Positions 907 to 53,348 of a stretch of 64,000 nucleotides of DNA are shown here, piece by piece. The stretch is from a virus (taxonomy: Duplodnaviria > Caudoviricetes): positions 2,227-66,226 of IMG/VR virus record IMGVR_UViG_2881418779_000002; one strand, written 5' to 3'. The position numbers and the translations under genes are program-made. The notes beneath the pieces were generated by a model. It saw nothing but the letters and a program-made list of their open reading frames with translations, ran no database searches and was not told where the DNA came from. Each line of letters opens with the position of its first letter. Positions within the stretch are counted from its first letter, which is position 1.

Positions 907-1638
907 TTACGGTGCAATACCCGCTGTGTAATGCGTCAACACGCGCGCTGCTGACAATGCCGTATCGTAAATGGCTACTTCGTCCAACGAACCAATCATT
1001 GCGCTAGTGTCATACCCCGGTGCATACGAACAGCCTACCGAAACCGGGTCCGTTGAAGAAAAAGGGGGGCCCGTAAAAGAACCCGTGGCATTAGGAGCGC
1101 CGTCAACATATGCCGTTACAAGACTCCCATTTTTTGTATAAACAATATGATGTATAGCGTTATCGTTAATCGCACTAGTCGCAATAAGTGCCGCTATTGA
1201 CCCGCCGTTGCTTGTACGAAGTTCCAACTTAATGCAGCCAGAAGAGTTGAGGCCAAGCTGCCACGAGGGATAATTCACCCCTCCCTGCTCCATAGATAAA
1301 ACGTTACCTGTCGTCGCACCTGTCTTTATCCAAAATTCCAAACTAAAGTCACCAGGTAACCGTAACGCCGCATCATTCGGCGCAGTTGCGACTGTTGCCG
1401 TGCCGGTAGTGCTTGTTTTGATAGATTTTCCCGCTGTAATAAGCGGTGGATTGCCGAGCGCGACAAGACCGCCGTATAACCCATTCCTGCCGTGTCCGCT
1501 TGAATCTGTCATTGCAGTACCAGACAATTCATCAAGTTTCCAATACGCGATCGGAAGGTCTGAAAGAACCTCGACCGCATAGGCATTGGTCGCAGCTGAT
1601 ACATGCGGTGATAACAGCACGGGGCCGCAAGCAAACAT
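907..1638 (-). CDS. LamG / concanavalin A-like lectin protein, putative receptor-binding tail component
   Basis: Motifs AYWKLDE, FSLEFWIK, HHIVYT..G..TAYVDG and GSLDEVAIYDTALSAA; last gene of the tail operon. Confidence 0.8.
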   Translation of the reverse strand: MFACGPVLLSPHVSAATNAYAVEVLSDLPIAYWKLDELSGTAMTDSSGHGRNGLYGGLVALGNPPLITAGKSIKTSTTGTATVATAPNDAALRLPGDFSLEFWIKTGATTGNVLSMEQGGVNYPSWQLGLNSSGCIKLELRTSNGGSIAALIATSAINDNAIHHIVYTKNGSLVTAYVDGAPNATGSFTGPPFSSTDPVSVGCSYAPGYDTSAMIGSLDEVAIYDTALSAARVLTHYTAGIAP

Positions 1639-2666
1639 TATGCGTACCCCTTCGACAGGTTGCAGGCCAGCGTGCCATCGGTACTATCGTAATAGCAGCT
1701 CATCAGGTCGACCGCATTGGCAGCAGTGGACAATATGGGCGGCGTGCCGCCGGGAAATTTAAAAGCGCTTCCATAGGCAAGCGTGCGATTGCCGGTAGCG
1801 TCCTGCTTGATACGGACGTTCAATACCATGCCGTCGGTCAAATTGGTAGGATTGGCGAGTGTCGCGTTTGCACCCAATACCAGTTTAAAGTTATTGGACA
1901 AGGATGCATCGACCGCAATTGAGGATCCAGAGGTGAGCAATGAAGGATCGACGCTCTGATTCCGCGTAAAGACATTGACTGCGCCAATCGTCGCGCCGGA
2001 GCCGCCACCGGGTGCTACTGCCCATGCAGGAACGCCTCCCACAATTGTCAACACTTGCCCGGTTGTACCAGCAGGTAGTCGCTCCGCCACCCCAGACGCG
2101 CCGCCGGATATCAAATCTCCAGCAGCAGTCATCGGGTTCGTCATCCAGGGCGCTGCGGACCATACGGGCAAGCCGCCCGCAAGCATCAATACCGTACCAT
2201 CCGTATCTTTTGCTAATCGTGTGGCAGCACCAGCTGCGCCACCATAAATAATGTCGCCCGATGCGCTCATTGGGTTAGCAAATCCAACGCCCGTTAAACT
2301 CTGTCCAAGCACGCGATTATCTGTGTAACTTGAAATGGTTGATATGCCGGCAACGACGATATACATCTGCCAATACCCCGCGGTAAATCCGACAGTATTA
2401 CTCGTCACCGCTCCGCTGCTCGGATTCGCCTGGATATAGCTGGTCGCATTTGCAGGGAGTGTTAGCGTGCCATTCGCAATCTGTGTCGTGGTACTACCTA
2501 GCATGATGGTACCGCCGTAATAACCCCACGACAGTCCGGAGGTGGTGGATTCCCGTCGCCCGTAAAGCGTTGCCGGACTGGCCGCGTCGAGCAATGCGTT
2601 GATCGTGATTTCTTTCGAGGACTGCGATTGGCTCAGTTGATCAATATTACTGCTGCTATTTGCCAA
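1638..2666 (-). CDS. Tail fibre protein
   Basis: Probable TTG start at 2666 with an AGGAG RBS. Gly/Ala-rich, two internal NPM(S/T)A(S/A)GD(I/L)I..GG repeats, and a C-terminal fibre-type domain (LANPTN...IKQDATGNRTL). Confidence 0.75.
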   Translation of the reverse strand: MANSSSNIDQLSQSQSSKEITINALLDAASPATLYGRRESTTSGLSWGYYGGTIMLGSTTTQIANGTLTLPANATSYIQANPSSGAVTSNTVGFTAGYWQMYIVVAGISTISSYTDNRVLGQSLTGVGFANPMSASGDIIYGGAAGAATRLAKDTDGTVLMLAGGLPVWSAAPWMTNPMTAAGDLISGGASGVAERLPAGTTGQVLTIVGGVPAWAVAPGGGSGATIGAVNVFTRNQSVDPSLLTSGSSIAVDASLSNNFKLVLGANATLANPTNLTDGMVLNVRIKQDATGNRTLAYGSAFKFPGGTPPILSTAANAVDLMSCYYDSTDGTLACNLSKGYA

Positions 2667-43353: not shown

Positions 43354-44253
43354 ATGTGGTTTCACAATCTTCAAATTTATCGTATTCCCGCGCCTTGGGC
43401 GATCAGCGCTGAGCAGCTGGAAGCATTTTTGGCGAAGCGGGTTTTCGCACCGTGCAGCAGTCTGGAAATGCAAACCCAAGGTTGGACTTCACCGCGCGAT
43501 AGCGGACAGCTGGTGCATATCGTTGATCGCCAGATGCTTATCGCGTTGCGTACTGAAAAGAAATTGCTTCCGGCCTCGGTTATTAATCAGGTCACCAAAG
43601 ATCGCGCCGCCGAAATCGAATCTGAGCAAGGTTTTGCGCCGGGCCGCAAGCAACTAAAGGATTTGAAAGAGCAAGTCACCGACGAATTGCTGCCACGCGC
43701 CTTTAGTCAACTCCGGACGACGCACGTATGGATTGATCCGGTCAATGGCTGGCTGATCGTAGATGTGTCCAGTCCATCACGTGCAGAGGACGCTCTGAAG
43801 CTGCTGCTTGCATCGGTTGATAAGTTGGAAGCGTCAGGATTGCGCACGGTGCATTCGCCACTGACATCCATGACCGACTGGCTTGTGGCCGATGAAGCGC
43901 CGAGTGGCTTTACGGTCGATCAGGATACGGAATTGCGCGCCAATGGCGAAGGCAAGGCAACCGTTCGCTATATCCGCCACACCCTGGAAGTGGACGATAC
44001 TCGCCGCCACATCGCCGCAGGGAAGCAGTGCACCCGCTTGGCGATGACCTGGAATGATCGCATCTCGTTCGTGCTGACCGAGGGACTAGCGATCAAGCGC
44101 ATTGCTCCCCTCGATGTCATCAAAGAAGAAAGCGATCCGACCAATCGCAATGATAGCGAACGCTTTGATGGTGACTTCTTGCTGATGACCGGCGAGTTAA
44201 ACAAAATGCTAAACGATCTTGTATTTGCCTTAGGTGGGGAGCCAGCAGTATGA
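43354..44253 (+). CDS. rdgC: Recombination-associated protein RdgC
   Basis: [46 protein letters not shown] and FDGDF.LM motifs. Confidence 0.95.
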
Positions 44254-45422
44254 GCAATGGCGCCCCGCGATTCACCGAACACGACACGTCGCTGAATCTT
44301 TGGCTCGATGATCCCAAGGATCCAGCTGTCAAGGCAACCCGCGACCAGTTGGTCGACCACCTCAGTGCCCGTGGCTTTCACATTGAAAACGACCAGAGCG
44401 TCGACGCGCTCATCCGCGATGACTATCACACCGGTAACAAAGGCGCCCTTGAGTTCAATCTGAACCTCTGCGGCCGACACCTGGAAATTATTTTTTTCCA
44501 GAACGTAGTCCGCGAGAATCGGGCGGGTGGCGAGTATGACTTCGACAAGCGAGAGAAAATGCCATTCCTGATCGGCATGCAGTACGAGCTCGAGCGCGCA
44601 AAGATCGCAACGTTAATGGCTGGCCTTGGCTACGCACTCCAAGTCAAGGTCAAGCGCCAAGGCATGGCAGAGATCACCCATCGTCGTGACGAGCTGGCCG
44701 AGCAGCACCGCGGCATATACGACAAGCAGCCGGAGTCGCGCAACTCGACCACGGCGACCAAGGACACAGTCCGCGATGGAGATGCGATCTACTTCCGCAA
44801 TCATGATAAACGCTGGTTTTCGGGCACCGCGTATTACCACATCAACAATATGTGGTGGGTCTTGTTGCCCTGCGGGGAGGTGATGAACATCGCCAGTTTT
44901 GAATTGCGCCACACAGCACCGGAAGCAGGACTGAAAGGTCAGCACTTCAACGATGACGATCGGAAGAAAAAACAGATGGCCGCGATCCATCAAGCTGTAG
45001 CACGCAAAAATATGAGGAAGATCGAGGTATTGCGCGCCAGCCTGACGCCGGAAAACAGCTACTACGTCCTAAGTCTGAAGCACACCAACCGAACCGATGC
45101 CCACATCACCCTATGGGGCCAGAGCGGCTGCGGGTACCGATATAGCATCGCCGCAGCCGGCAAGTACAGCCGTGACGAAATTATGGCGCATCTGGGCCAC
45201 TACAACGGCGGAGACAACATCGCCGTCGACGCGGAGACAGTCGAGCGCCTGGTGACGATGTGCGACAAGACAGACCGCGATCTAGAGCGCCAGGCGCCAA
45301 CCCTGCGCAACACACCAAGCAACTGGCACAAGCTGATCGCCTCAGCTATCGCAACGCCTAAGCACGACGTCATCCCCGAAGTTTTCAGAACCAAGTCGGG
45401 AAAGAAAAGGAAGGCAGCATGA
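44250..45422 (+). CDS. Multidomain hypothetical protein
   Basis: 390 aa; GRHLEI.FFQNV..EN..GG.YDFDK and [13 protein letters not shown] motifs. Confidence 0.6.
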
Positions 45423-45465: not shown

Positions 45466-46713
45466 ATGGCGAACTACTACAACGAAATCGACCCATACGC
45501 TGCTAAATGGCTGCGCAACCTCATCGCCGCTGGACACATTGCGCCCGGCGACGTAGATGAACGGAGTATTGAAGATGTTAGACCAGATGACTTACGAGGA
45601 TATATCCAATGCCACTTTTTCGCTGGAATTGGAGTTTGGTCCCATGCTTTACGTCGCGCAGGATGGGCAGATTCGCGACCAGTCTGGACGGGTAGTTGTC
45701 CGTGCCAGCCTTTCAGCGCGGCAGGTAAAGGAATTGGATTTGCTGACGAGCGGCACCTTTGGCCTGCTTGGAACCACCTCATCAGCGAGTGCGATCCTCC
45801 AATCGTCTTTGGAGAGCAAGTTGCGAGTAAAGATGCAGACGCTTGGGTCGACCTTGTACACACTGACATGGAAGCCTTGGGTTACGCCTTCGGGGCGGTC
45901 CCGTTTCCGTCTGCGGGCATCGGTGCCCCGCACATCAGAGACAGGAACTATTGGGTGGCCCACGCCAACATGCAACGTCAACAATCAGCCAGAAACAGAA
46001 AGAGGTCTGCAAACGTTGGCGGGGCAAGCAAGTCTTTCGGGCTGGATCACTCCAACGGTACGGGATTGGAAAGATACGCCGGGGATGATAGCGCAGAGGG
46101 ACGGCAAGGATCGCGTGGATCAGTTGCCGAGACAAGCATATTTGGCGGGCTGGCCGACATGCACGGTAACCGATTCCTCGAGGGGAGTAAAAGACGCGAG
46201 ACCCTGGGATACGGGCAAGCCGCTGAATCAGATCGTGGCGCTGGCCGGTTGGCCGACGCCATCGAAAGCCAACGGGGACGGCGGCCAAACGATGACGCAT
46301 TGCAGTCCATCGGGGCGGAGGTTGGACGGAACAAAATCACAGGTGACACTGAACGGAATAGTCAACTTAGCGGGATGGCCGACGCCAATGGCCGGAACAC
46401 CAGCACAGAAGGGGTACAACGCGTCAGCCAGCACGGATGGGGGCAGAAAAACGGCAGCACTTTGCGGGGCGAACTTAGCGGGATCGGGAGTGACAACATC
46501 ACCCGAATGGAGCGGCCCGGCCCGACTAACGGTTTCTGGCGAGATGTTGACTGGCTTGGATGCAGGGATGGAAAGTGGCGGCCAGTTGAACCCGGCACAT
46601 TCCCGCTGGCTCATGGGGCTGCCTCAAGAGTGGGACGACTGCGCGCCTACGGAAACGCTATCAATGCTGAAGCGGCAAAAACTTTTATCGACACCGTAAT
46701 GGAGTGGTTATGA
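45466..46713 (+). CDS. C5 cytosine DNA methyltransferase, alpha chain
   Basis: FFAGIG (I), [10 protein letters not shown] (IV), FGEQV (VI), GAPHIRDR (VIII) and RLRAYGNAI (X); no motif IX in this frame. Confidence 0.9.
45557..46699 (+). CDS. Nested +1-frame ORF, putative methyltransferase beta chain (GWxT modules + motif IX)
   Basis: 380 codons open entirely within the alpha gene; five GWxT modules and [18 protein letters not shown]. Confidence 0.75.
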
Positions 46714-46762
46714 AATCGAATTTTTCTCATGAGCGTCAGATTGCGAGGGTGGCATGATCAAT

Positions 46763-47302
46763 TTAGTGAGTATCGTCCAGATCAACCCATACCAGCTCCG
46801 AAATATTTTTCTTAATCATGACGGAGGACGATTGTTCAGCGATTCTCATCATAACCCTTCGCATCTCCAAGAGCCAATGCTTATCGGATTGGCCGGCATC
46901 CTCCGTGACCCACACCTCACGACCATGAAACCGCTGGAAAACGTGCGCAAGTATATCCTTAAGTCTAAAAAGACATGTAAGCAGAGTCGGGTCCAGGCAT
47001 CTGAGAGGAATTTTTCCGAGCGAGCTTCGCATCTCGTTGAATGCTGCCACATCAAAAATGACCGGGGATCCTGGCGCGCTCTCGATTTGATCGTTCAAAT
47101 TAATAGCAAATTGCATCGCTTCATGGTTCAGGAGATGCAGGGTCAAAACCGCATTGTCCTCGTCTCGTTGCCGGACAATATTTTGCTGGTGTCTAGAAAT
47201 CCAAATTGCAGCGCCAATAGCTGCGATAGACCCAACCGCCTGAACCCAAGCAGCCCAATCCTGACTACTCATCGGAGGGTACAGCACAAACGTTACCACC
47301 AA
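46763..47302 (-). CDS. Antisense membrane protein (moron); a possible upstream start at 47347 is cut by TGA
   Basis: WAAWVQAVGSIAAIGAAIWIS transmembrane motif. Confidence 0.65.
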   Translation of the reverse strand: MVVTFVLYPPMSSQDWAAWVQAVGSIAAIGAAIWISRHQQNIVRQRDEDNAVLTLHLLNHEAMQFAINLNDQIESAPGSPVIFDVAAFNEMRSSLGKIPLRCLDPTLLTCLFRLKDILAHVFQRFHGREVWVTEDAGQSDKHWLLEMRRVMMRIAEQSSSVMIKKNISELVWVDLDDTH

Positions 47303-47336
47303 AAAGGCACTGGCAAATCCAATTGTAATTTTTCAT

Positions 47337-47621
47337 CTAAGCAACATCACTTTCTCCCATATTTTGGGGGAATCCTAACATGACCCAAACCCGCAAAGGT
47401 ATCGATAAGGCGTTTACGATTGATTTACTCGCGCCACAGTCGTGCAGAGGGCCAATCAAGATCCGGCTGCATAAGGATGAGGAACCACCCTCATCGCGCA
47501 CGCCAATCAATTCGTTTCGGTGATCACAGGTTGGGCAAATAAAGTAAGACCCTACCTCATCGACTTCTGGCGTAAGGAGTGCAAAGTCCCACTCAGTTTT
47601 GCATTTTCGACATATCCACAT
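47337..47621 (-). CDS. Small zinc-ribbon protein
   Basis: CRKC...CPTCDHRN in the first 40 aa; the C-terminal half looks non-conserved. Confidence 0.4.
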   Translation of the reverse strand: MWICRKCKTEWDFALLTPEVDEVGSYFICPTCDHRNELIGVRDEGGSSSLCSRILIGPLHDCGASKSIVNALSIPLRVWVMLGFPQNMGESDVA

Positions 47622-50543: not shown

Positions 50544-50746
50544 ACCACGCAATGACTTGGGTTAAGCTTACAAAATACGTTGACATAACAGGCGACACCG
50601 CAGATGCGGTCCGGTCACGCAGAAAAATGGGTAAATGGCTGGACGGCACCCAGTGCAAGATTGTCGACGGATTTTTGTGGGTAAATTTGGCTGAGGCAGA
50701 AAAATGGGTGGAGCAATGGGGAACCAAGCAAGCACTCGCGGCATAG
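50540..50746 (+). CDS. xis: Excisionase
   Basis: WVKLTKY..ITG...V..RRKMGKWLDG...DG.LWVNL; overlaps int. Confidence 0.8.
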   Translation: MNHAMTWVKLTKYVDITGDTADAVRSRRKMGKWLDGTQCKIVDGFLWVNLAEAEKWVEQWGTKQALAA

Positions 50747-51918
50747 AACTGCGAAAAGGAACGGAATCCGAGTCCATTCGAATCCGGTTCATGTACAAGG
50801 GAATGGAGTGCCGAGAGTCACTAAAACTTGCGCACACCAAGCAGAACATCAACTACGCGATCCGCCTTCGCGGGGAAATCCTCAATGCTATTGAGCGCGG
50901 GAATTTCAATTACGCGGAATATTTTCCCGACTCAACTACGGCTAGCAAATTCGGCCCAGCTCCCGTGAAGGAGACTATCGGCGAGTTACTGCGCGAACAA
51001 TTGGATATTGCAAAGAAAACACTATCAGCCAGCACACATCGTGGGTATAAGCAGGTTTGTGACTCGCATCTATTCGATCAGTGGGATAAAACCCTATTGC
51101 GCGATTTGACGGCACCGGCGATTAGGGCATGGATTGCTGGACTGGATTGCAAAATCAAGACTGTCCGCAACATTCTTACCCCATTGCGGAATGCCTTGGA
51201 GCAGGCGGTTAATGACGACCTTATCGAATTTAATCCATTGGAGCGAGTCAAACTATCAAAGATCATGCCACGAGAAGCGCGCAAAACTGACTTTGAAGTT
51301 GATCCGTTCGATATGAAGGAAATTAGCGCAATCCTGGCGGCGTGCGTCGGTCAAGAGCGAAACGTGTGGCAGCACGCGTTTGCAACGGGAATGCGAACAT
51401 CGGAGTTTATCGCACTGGAGTGGCAATCGATTGACTGGGTGAGTTCAAAAATTAGTGTTGATCGCGTCAAAACTCAAGGCATCACCAAGACGGATGCCAA
51501 AACCGCAGCGGGTAATCGGAAGATAGATATGCTACGCGGCGCATACGACGCCCTGGTTGCGCAAAAGGAATTCACTCAACTAAAAGGAGGATTGGTATTT
51601 GAGGATCCTCGTTATAACGAAGGGTGGGCTGATGACCATGCGCTAGCCAAGCGCTGGCGACGAATCTTAACAAAGGCAGGAGTCAGGTATCGCAATCCGT
51701 ACCAGACGCGTCATACCTTCGCTAGTACGTTGCTATCCGCAGGAGCAAACCCTTTATACGTCGCAAAGATGATGGGACACCGCGACACCGAGATGATTAC
51801 CCGAAATTATGGTCGTTGGATTGAGCAGGGAACCGAATCGGAAACGCGGAAACAGCTTTTGGAGTTTTTCGCCCAAATGTCGCCCAAATCAAATGGGATA
51901 ATCGGCAAAGCGTTATAG
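50716..51918 (+). CDS. int: Prophage tyrosine integrase
   Basis: Arm-binding N-terminus (IRIRFMYKGMECRE); TGMRTSE, RNPYQTRHTFAS and MGHRD...Y catalytic motifs. Confidence 0.95.
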   Translation: MGNQASTRGIELRKGTESESIRIRFMYKGMECRESLKLAHTKQNINYAIRLRGEILNAIERGNFNYAEYFPDSTTASKFGPAPVKETIGELLREQLDIAKKTLSASTHRGYKQVCDSHLFDQWDKTLLRDLTAPAIRAWIAGLDCKIKTVRNILTPLRNALEQAVNDDLIEFNPLERVKLSKIMPREARKTDFEVDPFDMKEISAILAACVGQERNVWQHAFATGMRTSEFIALEWQSIDWVSSKISVDRVKTQGITKTDAKTAAGNRKIDMLRGAYDALVAQKEFTQLKGGLVFEDPRYNEGWADDHALAKRWRRILTKAGVRYRNPYQTRHTFASTLLSAGANPLYVAKMMGHRDTEMITRNYGRWIEQGTESETRKQLLEFFAQMSPKSNGIIGKAL

Positions 51919-51940
51919 GAACAGGCTCGGCGGTGACCGT

Positions 51941-51971
51941 GACGCGGGTTCGATTCCCGCCGCCTCCACCA
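51941..51971 (+). repeat. tmRNA (ssrA) 3'-end fragment: prophage att site and left junction of the second island
   Basis: GACGCGGGTTCGATTCCCGCCGCCTCCACCA: T-arm plus acceptor strand with U70 and CCA; no matching 5' acceptor strand just upstream. Confidence 0.8.
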
Positions 51972-52003
51972 ATTACGCGTATCACAAAGTCCCAAACTGT
52001 TCC

Positions 52004-52038
52004 AAAGGCCGCTCCCCTCATAGGGAAGCGGCCTTTTT
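52004..52038 (+). terminator. Terminator-like hairpin after the ssrA fragment
   Basis: AAGGCCGCTCCCC-TCATA-GGGAAGCGGCCTT followed by a T run. Confidence 0.7.
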
Positions 52039-52133
52039 ATTGTCTCGTGAGGTATCATAAAGTATCGCCACATCCCGTGATTTCAGACGGTATGTCTGAC
52101 GGTATCCCACCACCTTACAAGAGACATACCGTC

Positions 52134-53348
52134 ATGCCCCTTACAGACATTGAAATCCGTAATGCTAAAGCAAAGGATAAAGACTACAAGCTTTCTGATG
52201 AACGAGGTCTTTATCTTCTTATCAATAAAGCAGGAAAATATTGGCGTTATGACTATCGTTTTTCAGGAAAACGCAAAACGTTTGCGATAGGGGTTTATCC
52301 AGACATAACCCTTGCCGTTGCCAGAGTAAAACTTAACGAAGCACGTACCTTAGTCGCAAACGAGATCGATCCTGCGGTAAATAAGCAGGTGCAAAAGGCG
52401 GCAACCGTAGCTAGAGCGGCCAACAGTTTTGAAGTGGTGGCCCGCGAATGGTTTGCAAAATTCTCCAAAGAATGGGCGGAGAGTCACAGCAGCAAAATTC
52501 TCCGCCGCTTAGAGCGAGACATTTTCCCTTGGATTGGTGGCCGCCCAATTGCGGACATTACACCGCCCGAACTTTTAGCCGTGCTGCGCAGAATTGAAAA
52601 CCGTGGCGCACTAGAGACAGCGCATCGAGCACATCAAAACTGCAGTCAGGTATTCCGTTACGCAGTAGCGAGCGGACATATGCAACGCGACTTCTCGCCG
52701 GACTTACGCGGAGCGATTCCGCCAGCGAAAGAAACTCACCACCCATCAATTACTGACCTCAAGGGGATAGGTGAACTAATGCGGGTCATTCAAAGCTACG
52801 GTGGCTCATTTGTTACCCAGTGTGCGCTACGGCTCCTTCCTCTCGTTTTTGTTCGTTCGGCAGAACTACGGAAAGCCGAATGGGTAGAGTTTGATATAGA
52901 TCGGGCGGAGTGGCGCGTTCCTGCTGAGCGCATGAAAATGAAGGAACAGCATATCGTTCCCCTCTCCTTCCAGGCTGTCGTAATCCTGCGGGAGCTTCAC
53001 CCACTGACGGGTCACGGGAAATATGTTTTCCCGGGCGCAAGGACAAACGGACGTCCAATGAGTGAGAATACCGTCAACGGTGCGTTACGCCGCTTGGGGT
53101 ATAGCAAAGAAGAAATGACCGGCCACGGTTTTCGGAGCATGGCATCTACGCATTTAAATGAACAGGGCTGGAATCCAGACGCCATCGAACGCCAACTGGC
53201 GCATGGTGAGCGCGATCCCGTGCGCGGGGCTTATAACTTTGCTGAATATTTGGGAGAGAGGCGCAATATGATGCAGTCTTGGGCCGATTTTCTTGACAAA
53301 CTGGCCAGCGGGGATAAAGTCATGCCAATAGACAACAAAGTTGCTTAG
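52134..53348 (+). CDS. P4-family tyrosine integrase of the second island
   Basis: MPLTDIEIRNAK..DKDYKLSDERGLYL; VRSAELR, HGFRSMAST, IERQLAH and AYN motifs. Confidence 0.95.
   Translation: MPLTDIEIRNAKAKDKDYKLSDERGLYLLINKAGKYWRYDYRFSGKRKTFAIGVYPDITLAVARVKLNEARTLVANEIDPAVNKQVQKAATVARAANSFEVVAREWFAKFSKEWAESHSSKILRRLERDIFPWIGGRPIADITPPELLAVLRRIENRGALETAHRAHQNCSQVFRYAVASGHMQRDFSPDLRGAIPPAKETHHPSITDLKGIGELMRVIQSYGGSFVTQCALRLLPLVFVRSAELRKAEWVEFDIDRAEWRVPAERMKMKEQHIVPLSFQAVVILRELHPLTGHGKYVFPGARTNGRPMSENTVNGALRRLGYSKEEMTGHGFRSMASTHLNEQGWNPDAIERQLAHGERDPVRGAYNFAEYLGERRNMMQSWADFLDKLASGDKVMPIDNKVA

Follow-up and report, generated by a model that had tools for sequence, protein, structure and literature searches.

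A 64,000-nucleotide stretch of viral DNA (Duplodnaviria; Caudoviricetes; positions 2,227 to 66,226 of IMG/VR record IMGVR_UViG_2881418779_000002), referred to here as the window, carries a DNA cytosine C5 methyltransferase gene that very probably encodes proteins in two same-strand frames, both under purifying selection, with an overlap maintained by selection rather than by chance. The alpha coding sequence (45466..46713, + strand) specifies a 415-residue protein comprising the large, catalytic domain of a C5 methyltransferase, a long linker and a motif X helix. The beta coding sequence lies wholly inside alpha in the +1 frame and runs from a conserved ATG at 45575 to 46699 (+ strand, 374 residues). 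In the open reading frame (ORF) listing of the window, the two ORFs overlap by 1143 nt, or about 90% of the alpha gene. An earlier note, made from the letters of this stretch alone, had described two frames open over 1143 bp and proposed near-total dual coding in a phage; we found both ORFs as described (45466..46713 and 45557..46699), and the proposal is upheld by synonymous shuffles, substitution classes and a comparison of 95 loci. We further propose, with a probability of roughly 0.6 judged from sequence, that beta is the specificity subunit of the methyltransferase.

The +1 frame is free of stops across the family

None of the 95 homologous loci examined has a stop in the beta frame, which is uninterrupted in every one, and 91 keep alpha intact. 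Beta-frame stops in close homologues would, according to the earlier note, have refuted its proposal, which this comparison leaves standing. All 95 loci have a +1 frame that stays open from around alpha codon 40–60 to some 10–50 codons before the alpha end, and the +2 frame holds 9–31 stops per gene. As a null model, we shuffled the synonymous codons of alpha, preserving its protein and codon usage. For the window alpha, 0 of 100 shuffles had a stop-free +1 frame, with 4.96 stops expected; across 85 genes, we observed 0 stops in the +1 frame versus 258 expected, and the +2 control showed 1079 observed versus 946 expected. Resolved along the gene, +1 stops show no depletion in alpha codons 4–36 (142 observed, 101 expected), are depleted in codons 37–64 (13 observed, 48 expected) and do not occur in codons 93–165 (0 observed, 125 expected). 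The constraint also runs in the other direction: when synonymous codons of beta were shuffled in 84 genes selected as intact, 225 alpha-frame stops were expected in the middle and 0 were found. Alpha is open through its middle in 94 of the 95 loci, the exception being a mid-linker stop in L091.

Four homologues have a broken alpha and an intact beta. A stop replaces the Q of PCQ in L086:1201-2343, a stop falls in the linker of L091:1198-2358, and L014:1501-2375 and L001 (PMG1):1481-2402 carry one-base frameshifts; sequencing error is possible at these four loci. A broken beta with an intact alpha was not seen among the 95 loci.

Selection switches frame along the gene

The earlier note had named frame-specific conservation in homologues as a check on dual coding, and stop depletion, codon-position diversity and substitution classes all proved to be frame-specific. 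At the alpha wobble position, diversity falls from 0.57–0.58 outside the overlap to 0.37–0.41 in its core part and 0.25 in its C-terminal part. Mid-gene, variability is highest at the third codon position of beta, and before codon 37 and past the beta stop, substitutions are silent in alpha. The C-terminal stretch that is conserved in both frames (46510..46699, + strand; alpha residues 349–411 and the beta C terminus) has no wobble signature, with position diversities of 0.27, 0.18 and 0.25. Identity in this part is 0.58–0.79 for alpha and 0.67–0.78 for beta, and its substitutions are balanced, 47 being synonymous in alpha and nonsynonymous in beta and 56 the reverse.

Another prophage of the same genome carries a second copy of the two-frame gene (G000 contig C1:1542248-1542544 region; locus L112:1279-2529, - strand). 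Identical to IMG/VR locus L004, this paralogue is separated from the window copy by 56 nt differences plus a 3-nt indel. Of the 14 differences that precede codon 37, 10 leave the alpha protein unchanged and alter the +1 frame, where two create stops; of the 22 in the middle, 17 alter alpha and leave the beta protein unchanged. We found the same switch of frame in 17 independent close pairs; in the four pairs with colinear middles, 80 substitutions are silent in beta only versus 5 in alpha only (binomial p = 2e-18). From stop depletion, codon-position diversity and substitution classes, we conclude that selection acts on alpha as protein at its ends and only for openness in its middle, and on beta as protein between about alpha codon 37 and the beta stop.

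Alpha is a catalytic chain with a middle predicted to be disordered

Alpha matches phrog_363 (DNA methyltransferase) end to end (E 9e-88). Its match to PF00145 reaches 45.9 bits and covers residues 75–173 only, and that to TIGR00675 reaches 31.6 bits against a cut-off of 100.65. All five motifs previously assigned to alpha (I, IV, VI, VIII and X) could be located on the + strand and aligned to canonical motifs, with invariant columns across 79 sequences. Motif I (FxGxG; 45616-45633, residues 51–56) has F51, F52, G54 and G56 invariant, and motif IV (PCQ, with the catalytic cysteine; 45700-45714, residues 79–83) belongs to an invariant S-C-P-C-Q-P-F-S run that aligns to canonical enzymes with high confidence. 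Motif VI, canonically ENV, takes the variant form GEQV (45811-45822; G116, E117 and Q118 invariant) and motif VIII, canonically QxRxR, the variant form HIRDR (45931-45945; R158 and R160 invariant). Motif X (GNAI where the canonical form is GNAV; 46651..46662, residues 396–399) is invariant, aligns to canonical X and marks the start of the C-terminal helix.

An AlphaFold2 model of alpha built from the 79 sequences has an alpha/beta domain at residues 1–170 (predicted local distance difference test, pLDDT, 85–96), no secondary structure from about 185 to 360 (pLDDT 35–50) and a C-terminal helix at 401–414 (pLDDT above 90). Foldseek matched the model at E 1e-7 to M.HhaI, M.HaeIII and DNMT2, among others, along some 170–190 columns. 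Aligned with hhalign to 33 canonical single-chain C5 enzymes from related genomes (probability 98%, E 2e-14), alpha spans motifs I–VIII as well as X, leaving canonical motif IX opposite a gap, in line with the claim that alpha lacks this motif. A target-recognition domain and motif IX were not found between motifs VIII and X of alpha by modeling, conservation or hhalign. In their place is a linker (residues 169–348; 45970..46509, + strand) that is predicted to be disordered, is unconserved, with pairwise identity of 0.13–0.24 among homologues, and is kept merely open: its residues are free to vary, and the sole constraint on them is the absence of stop codons. Of the roughly 230 residues that had been called featureless, about 180 (169–348) are so, but residues 349–393 are well conserved.

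Three ORFs of 269–298 residues from related genomes, L102 (G001:C12), L111 (G001:C29) and L137 (G059:C1), score strongly against the N-terminal half of PF00145 only (1 to ~163–180), and these may be other split or two-chain C5 methyltransferases.

Beta combines conserved ends with a variable module array

The beta frame is open from an ATG at 45557, which gives the 380 codons first reported, but the likely start at ATG 45575 shortens the protein to about 374 residues. A Shine-Dalgarno-like GGAG (45563..45566, + strand) stands 8 nt upstream of ATG 45575. No other in-frame ATG is as well conserved: 62 of 85 homologues have its equivalent, 46 of those 62 with a Shine-Dalgarno-like motif ahead of it, and the equivalent methionine is the first residue in 98 of 120 public calls of beta-frame proteins. 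Internal initiation at ATG 45575 is, from these sequence features, the most likely origin of beta. A later TTG at 45740, with AAGGA upstream, is a possible alternative start in lineages without the ATG.

Across the 79 sequences, beta consists of a nearly invariant N-terminal element, a variable array of GWxT(P/C) modules and a nearly invariant C-terminal block. The N-terminal element (45779..45922, + strand) is a predicted helix plus beta-hairpin overprinted on the alpha catalytic core. Window beta has five tandem modules (45956..46387, + strand; sites at 45956, 46043, 46151, 46250 and 46376), each preceded by a short hydrophobic stretch; matches to the pattern W-x-T-x, one site in the N-terminal element included, number 0–6 per homologue and 6 in the window. 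The C-terminal block contains a 17-residue segment resembling motif IX (46586..46636, + strand) that is nearly invariant in the 79 sequences. Beta matches phrog_31772 (E 4e-48) and phrog_1008 (E 3e-35), two families that evidently derive from calls of the beta frame as a gene in other phages.

Fused "Rosetta-stone" forms of beta gave no independent functional link, being just read-through into varying downstream neighbours or long module arrays. In P0121, P0123-P0126, P0129-P0131 and P0133, the beta frame runs past its usual stop into the neighbouring gene, the partners being an N6/N4 methylase, an SNF2 helicase, DNA polymerase A and PD-(D/E)XK; because the partners vary, these forms are probably adjacency read-throughs or gene-call merges. 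P0122, P0127, P0128 and P0134 (684–763 residues) each match the module portion of the beta profile repeatedly, two to four times over, which suggests that the tandem array can expand well beyond the five copies of the window.

Beta as a candidate specificity subunit

In the arrangement we propose, one mRNA stretch of the prophage early region would yield two proteins. Alpha, translated from ATG 45466, would supply the S-adenosylmethionine-binding, catalytic large domain (motifs I–VIII), which the disordered linker of about 180 residues would join to the closing motif X helix. Beta would be initiated internally in the +1 frame, ATG 45575 with its GGAG being the likeliest start, and would comprise the N-terminal element over the alpha core, the GWxT array sharing its nucleotides with the alpha linker, and the motif IX-like segment. 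It would bind alpha as the missing small domain, contributing target recognition and motif IX to a heterodimer like that of the two-chain enzyme M.EcoHK31I, and exchange of module cassettes would alter sequence specificity.

A serious rival, to which we give an appreciable though minority chance, is that beta, real and selected as it is, does not complete the methyltransferase and could be an accessory protein housed at the same locus, such as an anti-defence factor or one that binds DNA. Several observations favor a subunit over such a passenger. Because alpha has no structured or conserved segment where the recognition domain and motif IX belong, it needs a partner. The parts of beta are colinear with the canonical motif order: since its modules begin where motif VIII ends and its IX-like segment precedes X, the two chains together would keep that order, with the conserved C-terminal block ending 14 nt before X. 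When beta was aligned by hhalign to canonical enzymes (5, then 33), the sole local alignment fell in the expected register (E 0.11–0.23). The module region is exchanged in the manner of a cassette: in at least 10 of the 17 close pairs, the cores are 91–99% identical and the middles 37–66% identical, and the swapped middles often differ in length and module count. By analogy, this region behaves as a specificity determinant would. Finally, alpha and beta were never separated in the 95 loci.

Other results weigh against a methyltransferase role for beta and on the side of an accessory protein. Overprinted viral genes often encode accessory proteins, and beta could not be tied to methyltransferases by any search of profiles, families or folds. 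Searches of beta against Pfam, NCBIfam, PADLOC and a PDB sequence profile gave no methyltransferase match, PF00145 is found in 0 of 79 family members, and comparison with canonical C5 enzymes was non-significant by hmmsearch and reached E 0.11 by hhalign with 33 enzymes. An AlphaFold2 model of beta alone has a mean pLDDT of 55, with the helix plus hairpin (model residues 69–116) at about 80, and a wide VIA-align search brought up no fold match that stood out (helix-hairpin, Z ≤4.4). As far as modeling goes, the poor model and the fold search indicate neither a new fold nor the absence of one. The named clusters of the ESM Atlas gave no usable match to beta.

The likeness to motif IX is also weak. 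A segment of this kind is present in beta at 46586-46636, as the earlier note had it, but its resemblance is statistically slight, and its service as motif IX is putative: the segment keeps only a hydrophobic and G-P core, without the R, E and R of canonical enzymes, and profile comparisons were non-significant. With a BLOSUM-averaged motif IX profile, the beta site ranks 10th, 3rd or 34th of about 128,000 six-frame positions of the window, depending on profile width, which corresponds to p of roughly 0.01–0.1 for a match anywhere in beta (ranks 3–34, again by width). With a log-odds position-specific scoring matrix of canonical motif IX, the site scores below zero because the R, E and R are missing. 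Nor is beta a small motif IX peptide like that of M.EcoHK31I, the precedent on which the earlier note modelled it; it is a protein of 300–380 residues that appears to hold the whole variable region.

A very improbable alternative is that a single enzyme is made through two programmed frameshifts, the ribosome entering beta past motif VIII and returning to alpha ahead of motif X, with the length of the open frames being incidental. The trans-frame product would indeed have the canonical order of motifs I–VIII, variable region, IX-like segment and X. Frameshifting is disfavored because it requires neither an open beta upstream nor an open alpha mid-gene, whereas selection keeps beta open over the roughly 130 codons that lie upstream of junction 1, where the 125 stops expected are all missing, and alpha stays open through the whole middle in all loci but one. 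Beta also has its own conserved ATG with a Shine-Dalgarno-like site, and a screen of homopolymer runs, rather than of every heptamer class, found no conserved run at junction 2 (none in 79 of 80 distinct sequences) or in the 14 sequences available for junction 1. On these grounds, we rejected double programmed frameshifting. Least probable of all is an untranslated second frame left open by base composition or codon bias, for although the region is G+C-rich with a strong purine skew and several antisense ORFs of 100–130 residues are likewise open, this is excluded by composition- and codon-usage-preserving shuffles (no stops where 258 were expected, alongside 1079 in the +2 frame), by the 80-to-5 excess of mid-gene substitutions silent in beta over those silent in alpha, and by the many nearly invariant beta residues across the 79 sequences.

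If beta is the specificity subunit, a more elaborate version, which we advance tentatively and consider less likely than not, is that it is a modular, expandable DNA-recognition subunit. The GWxT modules would be exchangeable target readers, swaps and copy number would reprogramme specificity or give multispecificity, and the alpha linker would stretch along with the array.

Relation to known methyltransferases

The precedent invoked for this locus, M.EcoHK31I of E. coli HK31 (recognition sequence YGGCCR), is as the earlier note stated. According to the descriptions in PMC2836561 and PMC3404938 of work by Lee, Kam and Shaw (1995), it is a two-polypeptide C5 methyltransferase whose beta is nested in another frame of alpha on the same strand and arises by internal initiation; both chains are required, alpha having motifs I–VIII and X with a predicted target-recognition domain and beta having motif IX. 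Compared with this published description, our locus likewise has beta wholly inside alpha in another same-strand frame and an alpha without motif IX. It differs in that the stretch of alpha between motifs VIII and X is a freely evolving, predicted-disordered linker rather than a recognition domain, and in that beta, which in M.EcoHK31I carries motif IX only, here has 300–380 residues with an N-terminal element of its own and a variable module array. We also contrast with M.EcoHK31I the extent of the overlap, about 90% of alpha, and the setting, a phage gene in the early region of a prophage. By analogy, the locus would be an M.EcoHK31I-like two-chain C5 methyltransferase that differs in the size and content of beta.

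M.AquI is a two-subunit C5 enzyme split in the variable region into a I–VIII part and a IX–X part (PMC3404938). Our locus resembles it in that a C5 enzyme would be formed from two polypeptides; it differs in having motif X on the catalytic chain and genes that overlap in different frames, no nested overlap being mentioned in that account of M.AquI.

The C5 methyltransferases of Bacillus phages SPR and phi3T are multispecific single-chain enzymes with several tandem target-recognising modules, addable and exchangeable, in one frame. As generally described, what they would have in common with our locus is such tandem modules in the variable region. The epsilon15-type "DNA cytosine methyltransferase" (phrog_363; epsilon15 NP_848249, BcepC6B gp33) is the gene family of alpha itself; its records carry one annotated gene each, placed in either of the two frames, unlike the two-protein reading given here.

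If both chains are made, few conserved same-strand overlaps of genes known from bacterial viruses would be as long as this one, at about 1.1 kb and 90% of the gene, and it would occur in thousands of phages and prophages from many Proteobacteria. It would mean that a domain can be replaced by a "don't-care" linker constrained only to stay open, with the other frame holding the information. Two-frame coding would also account for the incomplete look of this common phage methylase and for the varying choice of frame and name by annotation pipelines. The module array is a testable candidate for a modular specificity element with which phages escape restriction; if the modular-subunit interpretation is right, this would be a widespread, unannotated two-frame system of specificity shuffling by which phages evade restriction. 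M.EcoHK31I was chosen for targeted-methylation use in PMC2836561, and the pair described here could offer a natural heterodimeric C5 methyltransferase scaffold for such tools.

Distribution and annotation

At the DNA level, 227 phage records match the gene, including Salmonella phage epsilon15, Burkholderia phage BcepC6B and Pseudomonas phage PMG1, and 230 match the beta translation. At least 592 IMG/VR stretches encode a relative, and public collections hold at least 7704 clusters of beta-frame proteins; the 120 best listed of these clusters have no Pfam domain and are at most named "hypothetical protein". The expectation that standard annotation would miss the overlap proved right in part: the epsilon15 record annotates alpha only (NP_848249 being of the alpha family), but the PMG1 and phiBtTUL1a records do annotate the beta frame, under other names. 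It is labelled "DNA methyltransferase" in PMG1. In phiBtTUL1a (L002), the beta frame (1770-2678, + strand) is labelled "DNA repair protein", alpha is unannotated and a "hypothetical protein" is called at 1442-1783 (- strand) over the coding region of the alpha N terminus. The two-protein reading is absent from these three records. Our literature searches, whose coverage excludes most subscription journals, returned no description of the two-frame layout of this phage family. The ShiLan/HNH papers, which concern an out-of-frame insertion in actinophage methylases, treat a different case.

Genomic context

Because its neighbours are phage early genes and integrase-family genes, the methyltransferase locus lies in a prophage, in its early region. 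Upstream are a recombination-associated exonuclease gene (43354-44253, + strand; phrog_724) and a gene for a 390-residue protein of unknown function (44250-45422, + strand; phrog_7674). As these two share 4 nt, an early operon that also includes the methyltransferase is probable. A scan of flanking ORFs turned up no recognisable restriction gene. About 4–5 kb downstream of the methyltransferase are two adjoining integrase-family genes (50704-51918 and 51933-53348, + strand; phrog_1, E 3e-54 and 1e-67), which may mark the prophage end or two nested or adjacent elements. Directly downstream of the methyltransferase, the same DNA carries a 209-residue ORF (46754-47383, + strand) and a 179-residue ORF (46763-47302, - strand), of which only the minus-strand one matches PHROG, weakly (phrog_33632).

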